Assembly (NCBI GenBank): GCA_041666545.1 | Contig: JBAYGS010000001.1 | Span: forward strand, 153,942-217,941 | Length of the DNA stretch: 64,000 bases | Origin: Minisyncoccota bacterium | GTDB taxonomy: Bacteria; Patescibacteriota; Minisyncoccia; Phycocordibacterales; JBAYGS01 | Direction of reading: 5' to 3' | Shown: one piece after another, positions 45,922 through 53,513 of the stretch | Numbering within the stretch: the first letter of the stretch is position 1 | Layout: every line of letters starts with the position of its first letter | Notes under the pieces: generated by a model | What the model was told of the DNA's origin: nothing | What the model saw: only the letters and a program-made list of their open reading frames with translations | Databases searched by the model: none | Position numbers and translations under genes: made by a program

Positions 45922-47268
45922 CTAGGTTGGCAAATTAGATGGCGGTTCAGACTTTTTGGACATAATTCGGGCAAAGGTTGGGGTCGCCGCCACACCACCT
46001 GGGAAGTGGTAGATGGTCGCAATCTCCTCGGTTGTCAGGATAAACGGTTTATTACGATAATTTTTGTACGGTGGCTGGAAGAAAGCCCGGCGGCGGTAAG
46101 CGTCGAGGTAATGCCTCTCCAGACGCGTACGGCGCACTCGCCCCGGGTCGAGCCACCAATAGTCATAGTCGGTAAATTTACCGAGTTTGAATCCGTTGAA
46201 AAAGTTTGAGCTATATTGGCGAACACTGCCGATCAGGCCAGAAATGCCACCCGCATCAAATTCACTTGGGTCCCAGAAAAACATGCCTCGCATCATCGTG
46301 TCGAATGGGAACTTACCCAAACTTCTTTCAATCGAACCGATTTGTTCAATTTGACCCTTGGTCGGATTAGGAAAAGCTGTCACATCAGGGCCACGATCCG
46401 GAGTCGCCTCTTTTCTAATCTCCTCAATTTTGGATTTCGCTTCCTTCACCCAATCTCGCCCAAAACTAAAAGTGGCGTCGTCAGTAAAGGTGCTCTTGCG
46501 GTGAGCTTGAATCAGAATTTGAATCCAGGCCATTTGACCCTTTTTTAAGGAACCTAAATATTCCAAAACTGAAGTAATCGGGTCAATTTTAAATTCTTCC
46601 TTCGGGTCTTTATCCAAACCGTAGTCAACATAAGTCTTGATCGGAAAAACATCATCCTTGGTCAACTTGTAATGAGTCGCCCAAAATGGATATCGTGAAA
46701 TGTCATAAGGTATGCCAGCGGCATAATCTGGCACTTCATAAATCTCAACATTTGGATATTGAGCATAAATCTGCGCCTCAATAATGTTTCGCCACTTAAG
46801 TTGAGTCCAAATGAAAAAATGGACTTCGCCATCGAAAGAGGCCAACTCGAGCGAAAACCAGGGGCGCACCTTACCCTTCCAAAAAGTGTCAACATAACTC
46901 GAAGAGCCGGTCTGAAAAAGCGCAGTCAAAAAAATCTCCATCGCGAGTGGTGACTTGTTAGTCTCTTTAGGAATTTTTAGCTCCAAAAGCACCGAACCTT
47001 GCTTCCGAATAAAGTCAGAGCGGATATAGTCAAACCAGACTTTCCAAAAAATACGCAAAAGGATAAGGGGCACATAAACCGGAGCTAACGCCAAAATTAG
47101 CTGCCAACTTGGAGCAAAATACTCCGGATGAAATTGGAAAGCTTTTTGCCACCACCAAATAAGCCCAACCACGCTTAAAGCAAAAAAGAAACTGCGGAAG
47201 TACCTCTCTCGCTCCAAGGTTGCGAGCGCATAAAAGAGATCGAGGAATTTGATCAAAAGATCCTTCAT
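45922..47268 (-). CDS. hypothetical membrane-anchored protein (448 aa)
   Basis: Two N-terminal TM helices and a large Trp/Tyr-rich soluble domain. No recognised family. Confidence 0.5.
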   Translation of the reverse strand: MKDLLIKFLDLFYALATLERERYFRSFFFALSVVGLIWWWQKAFQFHPEYFAPSWQLILALAPVYVPLILLRIFWKVWFDYIRSDFIRKQGSVLLELKIPKETNKSPLAMEIFLTALFQTGSSSYVDTFWKGKVRPWFSLELASFDGEVHFFIWTQLKWRNIIEAQIYAQYPNVEIYEVPDYAAGIPYDISRYPFWATHYKLTKDDVFPIKTYVDYGLDKDPKEEFKIDPITSVLEYLGSLKKGQMAWIQILIQAHRKSTFTDDATFSFGRDWVKEAKSKIEEIRKEATPDRGPDVTAFPNPTKGQIEQIGSIERSLGKFPFDTMMRGMFFWDPSEFDAGGISGLIGSVRQYSSNFFNGFKLGKFTDYDYWWLDPGRVRRTRLERHYLDAYRRRAFFQPPYKNYRNKPFILTTEEIATIYHFPGGVAATPTFARIMSKKSEPPSNLPT

Positions 47269-47404: not shown

Positions 47405-48433
47405 TTACGCAACTGCGTACCTGCCCTCCTTATCTTTCTTAAAATACTTAGGGTTTTGCAGATTGACTACAATCGTATTCTCTTTAACATAGCGTTCCTT
47501 CAAAACCTTATCAATAACATCCTTTTTAACCATCGGGCCGTTCTTTTCGATAACCGCTCGAATCACATCTCGGACAACTCCCGGAGCATAACCCCACTCC
47601 TTGAGAGCATACAGACCTCGTCCAACCAAAACAAATCGTGGGTCCTTAATTAGTTCGTTGTGAGTAGTTGCCACATGAGCCTTCTTGCTGAAAATATTGC
47701 CAATCTGCTTGGCGACCTCACGGAAATGGATTGGGGAACCGTGCCTACGCAAAACTAGGTAGGCATAGTCTCGAATACCCTTAGCTTTGATGTTTGAGGA
47801 GGAAGCCTTACCCCATTCACCTAAAGGATTTCGGCCAATATTTTTTGATAGGGCCAACCAGCGCTTAATCACCTCCTCATCTTTGTACTTATCAGAAACA
47901 TCCTTCAAGTGCTCAAGAAAAGTCTCGACAAAATCCGACTCCGGAACAATGTCTTCATCGGAAAGAGATTTGTAAAGTTTTCGCAGAGATTCATGAATTT
48001 TCTTGGAAAGTTCATGATCGACATGCCAACGATGCTGAAATTCCTCGTCTTCCTTCTCCTTAAAGAAAGCATCGCCCAAGACCAACATAAAGTGAATTTG
48101 GTTTTGAATGCTCTTGTCCTTGGCGACATGATTCAAAAGGTCTTTTTCGGAAATAATCCCACCGAGCGAGTGGACCAAATCTGACAGCTGAGCAAAAGAG
48201 TCGGCCTCGTCTTTGTAATTCTTAGACTTCTTAATCTGCGCCAAAGCGTAGTTTTCGATCTGTCGAACCCGCTCGCGAGTGATGCCGTATTTCTTACCAA
48301 TGGCCTCAAGGGTCATTTTTTCGAAATCCTTGCCCAAGCCAAAACGACTGGTAATAATATCCCGGCCCCGTTCAGGAAGAGCGGTGATTAGATGCTTGAC
48401 GACCTGTTTTGATTTGAAATTAATGCTTGACAT
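47405..48433 (-). CDS. DNA-binding protein with an N-terminal sigma-70 region-4-type HTH and a C-terminal HARE-HTH-like winged helix
   Basis: N-terminus LPERGRDIITSRFGL...LEAIGKKYGITRERVRQIENYAL matches region 4.2. The C-terminus (HFREVAKQIGN...FVLVGRGLYALKEWGY) is HARE-HTH-like. Confidence 0.55.
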   Translation of the reverse strand: MSSINFKSKQVVKHLITALPERGRDIITSRFGLGKDFEKMTLEAIGKKYGITRERVRQIENYALAQIKKSKNYKDEADSFAQLSDLVHSLGGIISEKDLLNHVAKDKSIQNQIHFMLVLGDAFFKEKEDEEFQHRWHVDHELSKKIHESLRKLYKSLSDEDIVPESDFVETFLEHLKDVSDKYKDEEVIKRWLALSKNIGRNPLGEWGKASSSNIKAKGIRDYAYLVLRRHGSPIHFREVAKQIGNIFSKKAHVATTHNELIKDPRFVLVGRGLYALKEWGYAPGVVRDVIRAVIEKNGPMVKKDVIDKVLKERYVKENTIVVNLQNPKYFKKDKEGRYAVA

Positions 48434-48543: not shown

Positions 48544-51500
48544 CTATACAATATCACTAACTACAAAATTAAGCAAGCGACCCTTTACATAAATGGTTTT
48601 AATCAGTTTCTTACCATTTAACCACTTAGAAACCTCGCTCATTTGCCTGGCCTTTTGCTCAATCTCAGCCTGGTTTGCCCCTATATCGATTTCCAAAATC
48701 GCCCGAGTTTTCCCGCTGATTTGGATGGCAATTTTGGCGGTTGAGTCCTGAATTTTCGCCGGATCAAAAGTCGGCCACGCTTCAAGGTGGATGGATTTCT
48801 TACTTGCCCGACTGCGTCCTCGCGGATTAGGGCTTACCAAATTAGACCACAGCTCTTCCGTGATGTGTGGCGCAAACGGAGCCAAAAGTTTTAATAAGAT
48901 CTTGAAATAATCTTCACCCAACTTCCCTACTGCTTCAATTTCATTAAGCAAAATCATCAGTGAGCTAATAGCAGTGTTGAATTTCATTTCGGAAATGTCT
49001 TCTGAAACCTTTTTGATTGTTTGATTAAATAGAATTTCCAGTTTCCCCTGTTGTTGGTTGTCAGTTGTAAGTTTGTACTGTAACCGCCAGACTCGCTCCA
49101 AAAATCGGCGTGAGCCGGCAATTCCTTCGGTACTCCAAGCAATCGCTTGATCAAAAGGCCCCAGAAACATCTCGTACAGACGCAAAGTGTCGGCGCCGAC
49201 TTTTTCAGAGATATCATCAGGGTTAACCACATTACCCCAACGCTTGCTCATCTTCCGTCCGTCCTCGCCCATAATCAAGCCGACTGTTTGAAGTCTAGTG
49301 AAAGGTTCAACTGTCGAAACGGCGCCAATATCAAGCAGGAACTTATGCCAAAAACGAGCATAGATTAAATGTCGGGTCGCATGCTCAGCCCCGCCAACAT
49401 AGAAATCTACCGGAAGCCAGTATTTAATTTTATTTTGAATATTGTTGCTTGAAATTTGTTTGGTTATTGTTTCTTGCGATTTGAGATTTTCGCTTATGCA
49501 ATAAGCGATATAGTACCAACTTGAGCCGGCCCATTGTGGCATCGTATTCGTCTCGCGCTTTGCCGGACCCTTGCACTTCGGACATTTCACATTCACCCAC
49601 TTAGAAATCGCGGCAAGCGGTGACTCACCTGTGCCAGTCGGCTCGTAAGATTTAACCTTGGGCAATTTGACCGGTAGATCTTTTTCCGGCACCGGTACGG
49701 CCACGGTGACCGGTTCAATCTCCCAGGCTACCAAACCATTCTGCTTAATCTTTTCGACATAATTAGCTCCAAAAGCACTGTAGGCAATCTCCAATTCTTT
49801 CGCCGATCGAAAATTCTTTTTGCTTAATTGCGACAAAATAGATTTATCTTTAAAAACCTCGTCAAAATTCTTATAGACTCTAGATGATTTGACTCGATAA
49901 ACCAGTTCCTCCCTAACTTTCCTAGTTTTTTGGTCCTTGCGGCTGAAAAGCAACAAATCACCAACCTTGAAATCGCCAAAATATCTCCCTTTTTCTTCAG
50001 GGTTAAGGGCACGAGTTTCTACAGTTTTGACTCCTGACTTCAAATCTCGCCAAACCGGCTCATAATAAAAGTTAAGAGTAGTTTTCGCCTTTGCCCGATC
50101 AGTCTCAAGGGCACATTGGGCACAGTGCACAAGTGGAATCGGTTCGCCCCAATACCTTTGACGCGAGAAGACCCAATCTCGGAGTTTGTACTTGGTAATC
50201 ATTTTCCCGCCGGCAAATTCAGTAATTTCTTTTTTGGCCAATGCCGACTCAGTGTCATTAAATTTACTTGAATTAATTAAAACACCGTGTCCAACAAAAG
50301 CCTGCTCTTTATCAAAGAGGCCCCAGGCGTATTGATTATTAGGCAGGTTAAGGAATTCTGGCATCTTGGCGCGCTCAATCCAGACCGGAGAATGTTTGGC
50401 CTTTTCAGATTCAGAGACTTCATCTTGCTCGCCATCCACTAGCTCAAAATAAAGTGTGTGGCCCAGGGAATATCTATTTACATCTTTATGACCGGCAAAG
50501 TAGTGGCTGTGAACTTCTCCTCCGACCCGACGAATAAACTTGGCATTCTTAAAGCCGGTCTCCTCATGGATTTCACGCTTGGCGGTTTCCGTGACATCTT
50601 CGCCGTCTTCAACCCCGCCGATAATAAAGGAGTGCCAATTAAATTTTTGCCAGTCCAAACACAAAAACTTATCTTCTTGCCAATGCTTCAGGATCACGTA
50701 AACCGTTTTCCGCTTTTCTGTCTTTTTGTCGGCACGAACAGCATCCGGTCCGGAAACAGTTTTAAAGTATGGAGCAATAACTTCCTTAATCGGCAAATTA
50801 TATTTCTTAGCAAAAGCAAAATCGCGCTCATCGTGGGCCGGCACGGCCATTACTGCGCCGGTGCCGTAGTCAGCCAAAACATAATCGGCCACCCAGATTG
50901 ACACTTCCTCGTTATTGGCCGGATTAATCGCCTTAATACCTTTCAGCTCGACTCCGGTTTTCTCTTTATTTTCGGCTGTGCGCTCGATTTCGGTTTTATT
51001 CTTCGATAGTACGATATATCGTACTATCTCGTCCCAGTTTTGAATTTTTGGTTTTAAGTCTTGGAGTAATTTTGATTCCGGCGCCAACACCACATAAGTG
51101 ACGCCGAAAAGCGTATCGGCTCTGGTCGTAAACACTCTAATCTCCTCCTCAACTTGAAACTTTAAACTTGAAACTTTAAAACTAATCTCCGATCCTTCCG
51201 ACTTCCCAATCCAATTTTTCTGAAGCTCGATAATCGAATTCGGCCAGTTTAAAATCGGCCCGCCAGTTTTATCCTTCGCGTCCAAATCGGCAAGCAGTCT
51301 TTCGGCATAATCAGTAATTCTCAAAACCCACTGACGCATCGGCTTTTTCTCAACCACACTGCTACAGCGTTCGCAAAGGCCATCTTCCACATCCTCATTC
51401 GCCAAACCGGTCTTGCAAGACGGGCACCAGTTGATCGGTTCAAAGGATTCATAAGCCAAACCTTTTTCAAAAAGTTTTAAGAAAATCCACTGCGTCCACT

Positions 51501-51918
51501 TGTAATAGGCCGGGTCGGTCGTGTTTACTTCCCGACTCCAATCATAATCAAAACCAAAAATCTCCAACTGCTTTTTATAGCGTTTAACATTCTTGGCGAC
51601 CGCAATCGCCGGATTAGTCTTGGTTTTGATGGCATAGTTCTCAGCCGGTAAACCGAACGCATCAAAGCCCATCGGGTGAAGCACCGAGTGGCCCTGCATT
51701 CTTTTCATTCGCGAAATTATATCGGTTGCGATATAGCCCTTGGGATGCCCAACATGAAGCCCTTCACCGGATGGATACGGGAACATGTCCAAAATATAAA
51801 ACTTTTTTTTATTTGAATCTTCCTTAGTGGCATAAATTTTCTGCTTTGCCCAAATCTTCTGCCACTTCGATTCAATTTTGCGATGATTATAGTCTTTGCT
51901 GTGCATAGGCAAAATCAT
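48544..51918 (-). CDS. leuS: leucyl-tRNA synthetase with two inserted extra domains (Nudix-like and ASCH/PUA-like)
   Basis: HIGH-type motif GLHVGHPKGY, CP1 editing motif YGTGAVMAVPAHDERDFAFA, KMSKR. The protein is 1124 aa, against a typical ~800-860 aa. Details are in the findings. Confidence 0.9.
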   Translation of the reverse strand: MILPMHSKDYNHRKIESKWQKIWAKQKIYATKEDSNKKKFYILDMFPYPSGEGLHVGHPKGYIATDIISRMKRMQGHSVLHPMGFDAFGLPAENYAIKTKTNPAIAVAKNVKRYKKQLEIFGFDYDWSREVNTTDPAYYKWTQWIFLKLFEKGLAYESFEPINWCPSCKTGLANEDVEDGLCERCSSVVEKKPMRQWVLRITDYAERLLADLDAKDKTGGPILNWPNSIIELQKNWIGKSEGSEISFKVSSLKFQVEEEIRVFTTRADTLFGVTYVVLAPESKLLQDLKPKIQNWDEIVRYIVLSKNKTEIERTAENKEKTGVELKGIKAINPANNEEVSIWVADYVLADYGTGAVMAVPAHDERDFAFAKKYNLPIKEVIAPYFKTVSGPDAVRADKKTEKRKTVYVILKHWQEDKFLCLDWQKFNWHSFIIGGVEDGEDVTETAKREIHEETGFKNAKFIRRVGGEVHSHYFAGHKDVNRYSLGHTLYFELVDGEQDEVSESEKAKHSPVWIERAKMPEFLNLPNNQYAWGLFDKEQAFVGHGVLINSSKFNDTESALAKKEITEFAGGKMITKYKLRDWVFSRQRYWGEPIPLVHCAQCALETDRAKAKTTLNFYYEPVWRDLKSGVKTVETRALNPEEKGRYFGDFKVGDLLLFSRKDQKTRKVREELVYRVKSSRVYKNFDEVFKDKSILSQLSKKNFRSAKELEIAYSAFGANYVEKIKQNGLVAWEIEPVTVAVPVPEKDLPVKLPKVKSYEPTGTGESPLAAISKWVNVKCPKCKGPAKRETNTMPQWAGSSWYYIAYCISENLKSQETITKQISSNNIQNKIKYWLPVDFYVGGAEHATRHLIYARFWHKFLLDIGAVSTVEPFTRLQTVGLIMGEDGRKMSKRWGNVVNPDDISEKVGADTLRLYEMFLGPFDQAIAWSTEGIAGSRRFLERVWRLQYKLTTDNQQQGKLEILFNQTIKKVSEDISEMKFNTAISSLMILLNEIEAVGKLGEDYFKILLKLLAPFAPHITEELWSNLVSPNPRGRSRASKKSIHLEAWPTFDPAKIQDSTAKIAIQISGKTRAILEIDIGANQAEIEQKARQMSEVSKWLNGKKLIKTIYVKGRLLNFVVSDIV

Positions 51919-51983: not shown

Positions 51984-52949
51984 TTAGTAACCCATCGGCA
52001 CAGTCCTCACATTTACCGGATAGCGGTCCTTGTCAATCGTTCTGGCAAAACAGAAATCTCCAGCCGAGTGTTGCCAATTCTCATTGGTTCCATAGCTGTA
52101 ATCATTGGCCCTGCGGGTGTCTTTGGAATTATCCAGGGCAAACTTGCCGCACAACTTGAAATTCAGACTCTCCGAACCGTTAACGCCAAAACTATAGTCA
52201 ACCTTGGTCTCTGGATCCTTTGGCGCTTTCCAGCCGGAAATTGAATCCTCAAGATCAGTTAGAGCCGTCGGCAACCGCCCCTTGCTCTGCCAATAGCTAA
52301 TCACTTGCCACTGAATATTTTGTAGGTCACTTACCCTTTGATCATCGAATCGGGCCTGGCGAGCCGTCATTGGCGAACCGACCGCAAGGAAGGCAACGAC
52401 AATGGAAACCAGCACAATTGCCGCCGTGCCCCACTTGTAAGCATTGCGGACCAGCCTGTCACCAGCACTACCTTTTCGTAAATCGTAGAGATAGTAGGAG
52501 AAAATCAGAGCGCCAACAATCAAAATCACCAGAGCTTTTAGGATAAATCTGGTGGCGATTTCACCGGAAAGAAAAACATTAATCACGGCAATCAGATCTC
52601 CGATGATAAGTCCGCCCGCCAAAAACAATGTCAGATACACAATCACTTTGTGAATTCCGACTTCACGCTTCTCTGGATGCAGGTCGGCATCCTTACGAAT
52701 CAAGGTCATGAGCCAAAGATAAACCGGGAAAAGCACAATGAGCGAAGAAATCGCAAAACGCATCCCACCAGTAAAACCGTAGCTGTAATAATTGACAGTA
52801 TCAATCAGCCAATAATCGATAGTTGAAAACAAAAGAGCGATTAAACTGCCCGCGGAGACATACATCACGATTGCCGCCGCCACATTTAGAAAGAAATCCT
52901 TTGGCCCCATTTTTGGCTTAGCAATCGAAACAACTGAATTTGGATCCAT
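51984..52949 (-). CDS. hypothetical polytopic membrane protein with a C-terminal soluble domain
   Basis: About 5 TM helices. No recognised family. Confidence 0.5.
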   Translation of the reverse strand: MDPNSVVSIAKPKMGPKDFFLNVAAAIVMYVSAGSLIALLFSTIDYWLIDTVNYYSYGFTGGMRFAISSLIVLFPVYLWLMTLIRKDADLHPEKREVGIHKVIVYLTLFLAGGLIIGDLIAVINVFLSGEIATRFILKALVILIVGALIFSYYLYDLRKGSAGDRLVRNAYKWGTAAIVLVSIVVAFLAVGSPMTARQARFDDQRVSDLQNIQWQVISYWQSKGRLPTALTDLEDSISGWKAPKDPETKVDYSFGVNGSESLNFKLCGKFALDNSKDTRRANDYSYGTNENWQHSAGDFCFARTIDKDRYPVNVRTVPMGY

Positions 52950-53057: not shown

Positions 53058-53085
53058 TTGACATCAGAAATATTTTATGTAAAAT
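53058..53085 (+). promoter_or_regulatory. consensus sigma70-like promoter (TTGACA-16-TAAAAT)
   Basis: Lies upstream of the pilin-like gene. RBS aaaagga sits 5 nt before the ATG at 53106. Confidence 0.6.
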
Positions 53086-53105
53086 GCAAAGCAGAAAAGG
53101 ACCGT

Positions 53106-53513
53106 ATGAAAATTAAAACCAGAAACAAGAGAGCATTCGTCTTCGTTGAGTTATTGGTGATACTGGCAATTATTGGGATAATGGCAGCCATGCTCCTACC
53201 TGCCATCGTCAAGGCCAAGAAAAGGGCCGCGGAAAACCAACTTAAGGAGGAAGTGGCCAAGACTTCGATTATCGAACTTCCCGCCGGCATCACCGGCAAG
53301 GTTTTCAAAGTCCACTGTGTTTACACCAACAATCTTGCGAAGGTCATGCTCGTCGGTGAAACTGCAGGTGGCCCCAAGAGCATGAGCTTTATCACCTCCG
53401 TGCCACCGAAATCACCTATCCCGATGGCCGGCAAATTTTACACAGCAACCGATAGTGGTTTGGCTGAGGTCGTCGGGTCGGCAACCGATCCCTCGCCCAC
53501 CGGTCAACACTAG
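53106..53513 (+). CDS. type IV pilin-like protein (prepilin-type N-terminal domain, non-canonical cleavage site)
   Basis: The N-terminus MKIKTRNKRAFVFVELLVILAIIGIMAAMLLPAI resembles the pilin N-terminal helix with Glu at +5, but has Ala instead of Gly at -1. Confidence 0.6.
   Translation: MKIKTRNKRAFVFVELLVILAIIGIMAAMLLPAIVKAKKRAAENQLKEEVAKTSIIELPAGITGKVFKVHCVYTNNLAKVMLVGETAGGPKSMSFITSVPPKSPIPMAGKFYTATDSGLAEVVGSATDPSPTGQH

Follow-up and report, generated by a model that had tools for sequence, protein, structure and literature searches.

The leuS gene described here lies at 48544..51918 on the minus strand of the window, that is, the whole stretch of 64,000 nucleotides analysed (contig JBAYGS010000001.1, positions 153,942 to 217,941; Minisyncoccota bacterium, assembly GCA_041666545.1). 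It encodes a bacterial-type leucyl-tRNA synthetase (LeuRS) of 1124 codons plus stop, with zero internal stops, in which two further domains are nested: a Nudix hydrolase domain within the CP1 editing domain and, as assigned from family homology and predicted fold, an ASCH domain within the hairpin of the second zinc module. The identical NCBI protein (MFA6536014.1, P0002 in our protein set) starts 4 codons downstream, is 1120 aa long and is annotated as 'class I tRNA ligase family protein' of Candidatus Paceibacterota. The window LeuRS scores 953.4 bits with the TIGR00396 leuS_bact equivalog model (cutoff 548.4), while comparison with the Thermus thermophilus (Tth) LeuRS 1h3n by phmmer gave E = 4e-192 in four aligned blocks. 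Since solved bacterial LeuRS chains are 877-880 aa long and the TIGR00396 profile has 843 positions, the protein is, by sequence comparison, about 250-280 residues longer than expected, even though it has no leucine-specific domain. An original prediction, made from the DNA letters alone, had described a 1124 aa synthetase with two inserts at 50299-50766 and 49699-50121. This description holds, since the open reading frame (ORF) is uninterrupted and shows two clean insertions relative to 1h3n at 50308-50772 and 49702-50109, within a few codons of the predicted limits. The gene is organised as follows:

48544..51918 (-), leuS, bacterial-type LeuRS, 1124 aa (TIGR00396, phmmer to 1h3n)
51220..51918 (-), N-terminal half of the Rossmann catalytic core and first zinc module, aa 1-233 (1h3n alignment)
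51745-51756 (-), HIGH motif HVGH, aa 55-58 (motif position)
50773..51219 (-), CP1 editing domain, first part, aa 234-382 (PF13603 positions 1-146 match aa 234-387)
51112-51129 (-), T-rich motif TTRADT (motif position)
50821-50835 (-), editing-site HDERD (motif position)
50308..50772 (-), insert 1, Nudix hydrolase domain, aa 383-537 (replaces Tth LeuRS residues 364-373; PF00293)
50551..50619 (-), Nudix box GGVEDGEDVTETAKREIHEETGF, aa 434-456 (fits GX5EX7REUXEEXGU at every position)
50110..50307 (-), end of CP1 leading back into the catalytic core, aa 538-603 (aligned to Tth 374-443)
50113-50124 (-), CAQC, first knuckle of the second zinc module (matches Tth C439, C442)
49702..50109 (-), insert 2, ASCH (PUA-like beta-barrel) domain, aa 604-739 (flanked by the CAQC and CPKC knuckles of the second zinc module)
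50011..50034 (-), ASCH octapeptide GVKTVETR, aa 629-636, with K631, E634 and R636 (GxKxxExR, GKER type)
49267..49701 (-), second half of the catalytic core, aa 740-884 (aligned to Tth 444-579)
49573-49584 (-), CPKC, second knuckle of the second zinc module (matches Tth C484, C487)
48544..49266 (-), KMSKS loop with anticodon-binding and C-terminal domains, aa 885-1124 (PF08264 at aa 964-1082)
49240-49254 (-), KMSKR (motif position)

The synthetase core

The class I motifs are present (HVGH at aa 55, KMSKR at aa 889), as are the CP1 editing motifs, namely the T-rich TTRADT at aa 264 and HDERD, with its conserved Asp, at aa 362; the four CxxC knuckles of both zinc modules are all retained. Judged from these motifs, the synthetase and editing machinery is intact. 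The window enzyme is like other bacterial LeuRSs (T. thermophilus 1H3N/2BYT, E. coli 4AQ7; TIGR00396) in its core, motifs, CP1, both zinc modules, and anticodon-binding and C-terminal domains, but differs from them by two nested domains, one of 155 aa within a CP1 loop and the other of 136 aa within the second zinc hairpin, and by the absence of the leucine-specific domain. The latter (Tth ~580-637) is skipped in the alignment, which passes from Tth 579 to Tth 638 just before KMSKR (nt 49240-49270, aa 884-890), and relatives of the window LeuRS have a similarly short core segment where this domain would sit. The possibility that the extra residues are an ordinary lineage-specific extension of CP1 or of the leucine-specific domain was rejected, the leucine-specific domain being in fact missing. 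The G+C content is 0.458 for insert 1, 0.402 for insert 2, 0.441 for the leuS gene and 0.464 for the window; the inserts are similar in this respect to both gene and window. Since all 120 closest LeuRS relatives share the Nudix-bearing build, the window LeuRS is most likely the housekeeping enzyme of this Candidatus Paceibacterota bacterium, a member of the candidate phyla radiation (CPR/Patescibacteria).

A Nudix domain nested in CP1

Within insert 1, PF00293 matches aa 425-519 with 41.0 bits when the whole protein is searched and 44.2 bits with the insert alone (cutoff 21.1), and what had been called a Nudix box-like signature, GGVEDGEDVTETAKREIHEETGF, fits the Nudix consensus exactly. The original prediction had placed this domain between the end of CP1 and the KYKLRDW segment, which had to be corrected: the PF13603 profile is split around insert 1, with positions 1-146 matching aa 234-387 and positions 152-183 picking up some 15 residues beyond it, at roughly aa 537-568, so that by this evidence the Nudix domain sits inside a CP1 loop, ~20 residues past the editing-site Asp. 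In the family alignment A2 the residues G53, E58, R66, E67, E70, E71 and G73 (insert numbering) are invariant, and the strict box is found in 102 of the 116 homologous inserts at this site.

When the Nudix family profile was compared with the PDB, the best matches were a lupin Ap4A (diadenosine tetraphosphate) hydrolase (1f3y, 6e-8), an Enterococcus faecalis Nudix protein (2azw, 1.5e-7) and an Aquifex Ap4A hydrolase (3i7u, 5e-7), followed by Dcp2, NUDT12 and RppH. The NCBIfam RppH models gave weak matches in 30 of 33 family members; all of them lie far below the cutoffs, so that the label 'Ap4A hydrolase/RppH-like' denotes a resemblance, not membership. The LeuRS Nudix shares a perfect box with the Ap4A-hydrolase/RppH (NudH)/Dcp2 group, in which its best profile matches fall, but it has its own conserved motifs past the box (HK..NR, H...W) and is nested in another domain instead of being free-standing. 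A 147-aa antisense ORF (50458-50901, plus strand) overlies the Nudix-coding region; it is a mechanical ORF within a well-supported gene and in all likelihood no gene of its own.

Insert 2, an ASCH domain between the zinc knuckles

Insert 2 falls exactly between Tth G443 and V444 in the 1h3n alignment. An exhaustive HMMER search of 1.84 billion representative proteins with insert 2 returned 44 relatives, including free-standing proteins of 115-135 aa, among which P0165 (27.3 bits), P0163 (26.9), P0139 (26.7) and P0140 (21.3) reach the PF04266 cutoff of 21.2. Pfam ASCH is matched by 20 of the 47 members of the family alignment A1, whereas a direct NCBIfam scan of insert 2 gave no meaningful match. 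The A1 profile aligned over its full length with Pyrococcus ASCH-fold structures (PH0355/2z0t, 1e-11; PF0455/1s04, 3e-10; 1xne, 6e-7). An AlphaFold2 model of insert 2 built with the A1 alignment reached a pLDDT (predicted local distance difference test) of 93.3 and a pTM (predicted template modelling score) of 0.83; this run was used for all structural comparisons, a single-sequence prediction (pLDDT 41) having been set aside. With this model, the top 12 Foldseek matches were all ASCH-fold proteins; YTH domains occur among the weaker fold matches. In the octapeptide GxKxxExR the K and R are invariant across the 47 family members and the E is at least 90% conserved. Family homology, octapeptide and predicted beta-barrel fold together identify insert 2 as an ASCH domain. 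The proposed ASCH/PUA-like nature of the second insert is upheld. Profile searches recovered the two assignments differently: the Nudix domain exceeded the PF00293 cutoff directly, while ASCH was recovered through relatives and the family profile and not from the insert's own sequence.

The biochemistry of ASCH proteins has recently been extended. YqfB is an N4-acetylcytidine amidohydrolase (PMC6972931), and all 19 ASCH proteins assayed in a February 2026 preprint are reported to deacetylate N4-acetylcytidine (ac4C) in tRNA, some members also stripping ac4C12 from the D-stem of eukaryotic tRNA (10.64898/2026.02.27.708502). In the GKER subgroup, the octapeptide Lys and Glu form an essential catalytic dyad (10.64898/2026.02.27.708502), and the window ASCH has exactly these residues. 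Its GVKTVETR is nearly identical to the octapeptide of EOLA1, GIKTVETR, as read from primer sequences. Characterised ASCH proteins, among them the ac4C amidohydrolases or tRNA ac4C erasers compared (E. coli YqfB 9KYF, T. thermophilus ASCH 2DP9, human EOLA1 and TRIP4, Pyrococcus PH0355 and PF0455), are all free-standing or terminal domains, whereas the window ASCH interrupts a class Ia synthetase and its activity is a prediction. A further difference is its subfamily, which is a separate one specific to CPR and DPANN genomes, is marked by the signature KTxETRALNPEEPxRYFG and has an additional helical segment.

Distribution of the nested domains

The whole-protein search that recovered the identical P0002 also yielded 119 other LeuRS clusters, 939-1558 aa in length, each with a precomputed PF00293 match. 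We mapped the domains of the best 120 LeuRS clusters, which are from Paceibacteria, onto the LeuRS core. The survey of relatives that the original prediction had called for showed Nudix in every one of them, in 1-3 copies, and ASCH in 13. At least four insertion sites were distinguished, with representative coordinates confirmed by Pfam; the count for site 1 is over 121 sequences:

Site 0, core/CP1 junction: 0-2 Nudix copies and/or a serine hydrolase
Site 1, CP1 loop as in the window: Nudix in 116/121 sequences
Site 2, second zinc hairpin: ASCH in 13/120, or a serine hydrolase of ~197 aa
Site 3, downstream of the second knuckle: HAD_2, ~212 aa

Many relatives (within P0003-P0111) have 2-3 Nudix domains, with the extra copies at the core/CP1 junction. 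One class of these site-0 copies has a degenerate box (GG.E.GQ....AA.AEI.EETGY) and could be a pseudo-dimer partner. HAD_2 or Ser_hydrolase/alpha-beta hydrolase domains are nested in P0007 (aa 997-1151), P0022 (aa 643-802), P0014 (aa 595-760) and P0050 (aa 286-392), and the P0022 hydrolase lies in the zinc hairpin, at the very position taken by ASCH in the window.

On a neighbour-joining tree of the LeuRS core, which is rough and carries no support values, the ASCH-bearing LeuRSs scatter among ASCH-free ones. This hints that the site-1 Nudix was probably ancestral, while the remaining sites gained and lost domains dynamically. The tree also hints at repeated lateral insertion, as opposed to one old insertion followed by losses. 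Since ASCH is found in a minority of relatives that are scattered on the tree, it is, on this distribution, dispensable for leucylation. Among homologs with both inserts, mean identity is 38% for Nudix, 46% for ASCH, 47% for the C-terminal anticodon-binding region and ~65% for the catalytic core; ASCH is thus about as constrained as an ordinary LeuRS domain, and Nudix somewhat less.

A pattern scan for the ASCH module in 185,579 GTDB species genomes found 84 loci, mostly in records titled Patescibacteria/CPR, with a few DPANN archaea and some metagenome-assembled genomes (MAGs) labelled Gammaproteobacteria or Bdellovibrionales. The 73 host ORFs comprise 51 LeuRSs, 18 of which also have Nudix, 12 valyl-tRNA synthetases (ValRS), 7 small ORFs, some of which may be artefacts of UGA recoding, and 3 others; LeuRS and ValRS together account for 63 of them (about 86%). 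The LeuRS junctions are constant, ASCH starting about 8 aa past a conserved segment and being followed by VPVPEKDLPVxLP. ASCH-bearing LeuRSs occur in complete genomes too, for example in Kerfeldbacteria (CP181398.1, L029). In ValRS the module lies at the homologous site, after ISRQIWFGHRIPVWY and before DEDTLDTWFSS, or at an alternative site at the start of CP1, between YIKYPL and ITVATTRPETMLGDTA; these hosts often also bear a cobC-like histidine phosphatase insert. Outside LeuRS, the module is fused to Nudix in P0131, while P0164 is a fragment in which a LeuRS-type Nudix is directly followed by ASCH, and it is fused to GNAT acetyltransferases in P0139 and P0156.

ValRS carriers of the subfamily, using the two sites, include P0133, P0135, P0137, P0141, P0148 and P0154, together with loci among L046-L074. 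Four MAGs labelled Nanoarchaeota, Woesearchaeota or Pacearchaeota (L033, L034, L039, L049) encode a bacterial-type LeuRS with ASCH at the same site, which reflects either CPR-DPANN gene transfer or mis-binning. We also noted a 1676-aa protein with five ASCH-like stretches (P0162) and an ASCH module (aa 326-451) in a 1141-aa non-synthetase host from a 'Limisphaerales' MAG (L060).

Proposed function and alternative explanations

We propose that two independently folding hydrolase domains have been inserted into surface loops of an intact LeuRS. The CP1-nested Nudix would be a pyrophosphohydrolase acting on dinucleoside polyphosphates (Ap4A-like) or on 5'-polyphosphate or capped RNA ends, and the GKER-type ASCH at the tip of the second zinc hairpin would be an N4-acylcytidine amidohydrolase, removing or reading ac4C on a tRNA that is bound to the synthetase or close to it. 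The Nudix domain is most likely an active enzyme, because it is nearly universal in this LeuRS clade and its catalytic box is kept; its candidate substrates are suggested by its nearest characterised relatives, which are Ap4A hydrolases, RppH and Dcp2. Aminoacyl-tRNA synthetases make Ap4A as a side product. The ASCH domain probably acts on N4-acetylcytidine, and most likely on tRNA, because its subfamily is found almost exclusively in LeuRS and ValRS at a conserved site. Domain identities, nested topology and insertion points, motif conservation, the conserved site and the restricted distribution are established, whereas catalytic competence, substrates and any coupling to aminoacylation are inferred. 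The joint occurrence of Nudix and ASCH outside LeuRS (P0131, P0164) and the constraint on the ASCH sequence also speak for this model. Taken as a whole, a housekeeping LeuRS with active Nudix and ASCH hydrolases, the latter most likely acting on tRNA, seems to us rather probable.

Several observations weigh against this model. The ASCH domain is present in just 13 of the 120 close relatives, and its scatter on the core tree has been described above. At these or different sites, relatives have hydrolases of unrelated families (HAD, serine hydrolase, histidine phosphatase), a variety that fits a generic 'platform' as well as a tRNA-specific role. The PDB matches of the Nudix family profile span mainly the N-terminal half and the Nudix box, and the Nudix domain stays far below the NCBIfam equivalog cutoffs, which lie above 100 bits, the best RppH score being 24.9 bits against a cutoff of 116. 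The ASCH sequence of the window stays below the Pfam ASCH (PF04266) threshold, with no match at E <= 1, and deacetylase activity is possibly an evolutionary remnant in some ASCH proteins (10.64898/2026.02.27.708502). The diversity of loop hydrolases in relatives (HAD_2, Ser_hydrolase, one to three Nudix, the cobC-like phosphatase in ValRS) and the patchiness of ASCH on the LeuRS tree would also suit inserts that are active but uncoupled from aminoacylation. They would then be nucleotide house-cleaning or salvage modules (a Nudix pyrophosphatase, an ASCH deacetylating free ac4C, HAD or histidine-phosphatase nucleotidases) lodged in the permissive loops of a gene that is essential and constitutively expressed, in genomes reliant on scavenged nucleotides. 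Free-standing ASCH relatives do exist, the free nucleoside has been proposed as the primary substrate of YqfB (10.64898/2026.02.27.708502), and a second preprint, by its title, places EOLA1 in nucleotide salvage, deacetylating free N4-acetylcytidine (10.64898/2026.08.01.741249). We regard such uncoupled salvage as possible but on balance improbable: LeuRS or ValRS hosts the ASCH subfamily in 63 of the 73 GTDB host ORFs, at a conserved site with a homologous counterpart in ValRS, which is hard to square with any permissive, well-expressed host sufficing, and the site-1 Nudix is kept in 116 of 121 LeuRS sequences.

It is quite unlikely that the inserts are mainly non-catalytic, serving as RNA-binding or structural elements, for example as extra tRNA contacts that offset the missing leucine-specific domain or as a modified-base reader for tRNA discrimination. 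The absence of that domain is compatible with such a role, PUA-like folds (ASCH, and YTH, which is among the weaker fold matches) bind RNA, some ASCH proteins bind tRNA, DNA or both (10.64898/2026.02.27.708502), and the degenerate class of extra Nudix copies in relatives has E -> Q and R -> A changes in its box. However, neither the window Nudix box nor the ASCH octapeptide has lost its catalytic residues, which are strongly conserved throughout the family, and relatives without ASCH also lack the leucine-specific domain (their core segment aligned to window aa 740-884 is ~134 aa long). An artefact (a chimeric assembly or a gene fusion by frameshift) or a selfish element (an intein or mobile insertion that is removed from the mature protein) is hardly credible. 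The unusual length and the slightly lower G+C content of the ASCH insert (0.402 vs 0.441 for the gene) could be read in its favour, but the ORF is single and stop-free, and both inserts start and finish in frame at conserved junctions (FDK|EQAF downstream of insert 1; CAQCA|LETD and VTV|AVPVP around insert 2). Moreover, >100 independent protein clusters, taken from assemblies of NCBI, JGI, ENA and Logan, repeat the nested layout, as do about 60 GTDB species, and a Pfam scan of the window LeuRS found no Hint or intein domain. Intein, frameshift and assembly chimera are effectively ruled out by the stop-free ORF, the lack of a Hint match and the recurrence in independent assemblies; likewise, the possibility of a frameshift or intron-like element that had been raised with the original prediction is answered by the single stop-free ORF and the lack of an intein-like domain match.

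Starting from active Nudix and ASCH hydrolases in a housekeeping LeuRS, a bolder and rather doubtful extension is that, in CPR bacteria and in some genomes labelled DPANN, the class Ia synthetases LeuRS and ValRS serve as platforms for tRNA demodification or repair. Here, ASCH would erase ac4C or another N-acyl group (e.g. of N-acetylated aminoacyl-tRNA produced by GNAT toxins) from the tRNA being charged, while Nudix would clear Ap4A or Np4A/NAD-type 5' caps. If true, this would be the first synthetase with a built-in RNA-modification eraser, tying the modification state of tRNA to aminoacylation.

Relation to known architectures

Bacterial aminoacyl-tRNA synthetases are usually seen as architecturally conservative. 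The original prediction had regarded the present architecture as undescribed, and we likewise found no paper that describes a Nudix or an ASCH domain in LeuRS or in the synthetases of CPR bacteria; as the literature searched lies mostly outside subscription journals, this is no proof of absence. Proteins of this architecture are already public, with automatic Pfam matches; the new element is that this architecture has been recognised, characterised and connected with ASCH chemistry, while neither the fold nor the family is new. A 2026 survey of domain insertions lists PF13603, the LeuRS editing domain, as one that is always inserted and has zero host events (PMC13114784), and the present LeuRS clade is a counter-example to this, because here CP1 hosts Nudix. 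Class Ia synthetases with accessory enzymes (IleRS-GNAT, NCBIfam NF040702; CP1 itself within the Rossmann fold) share the principle of a second catalytic domain or hydrolase in a core loop. The window enzyme differs from these precedents in that CP1 is itself the host, giving a domain within a domain within a domain, and in that the predicted chemistries are those of a pyrophosphatase and an amidohydrolase, not aminoacyl-ester editing.

This CPR clade nests one to three Nudix, ASCH, HAD or serine hydrolases in LeuRS, and ASCH also in ValRS. ASCH proteins have newly been put forward as erasers of ac4C in tRNA (10.64898/2026.02.27.708502), and an eraser-type domain built into two specific synthetases would offer a natural, testable case for targeting to particular tRNAs. 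The arrangement also bears on how several activities may be packed into essential proteins of ultra-small genomes, and it flags proteins that are annotated merely as 'class I tRNA ligase family protein'.

Genes around leuS

The sole tRNA gene in the window is tRNA-Pro (CGG), at 48-119 on the minus strand, and no tRNA-Leu lies near leuS. Two nearby ORFs are without a Pfam match, one of 448 aa (45922-47268, minus strand) and one of 151 aa with a pilin-like hydrophobic N-terminus (53058-53513, plus strand). The upstream neighbour of leuS (51984-52949, minus strand) encodes a DUF5671 membrane protein. The downstream neighbour (47405-48433, minus strand) encodes a 342 aa protein that combines Sigma70 region 4 (E = 7e-16) with HARE-HTH, an unusual sigma-like architecture.

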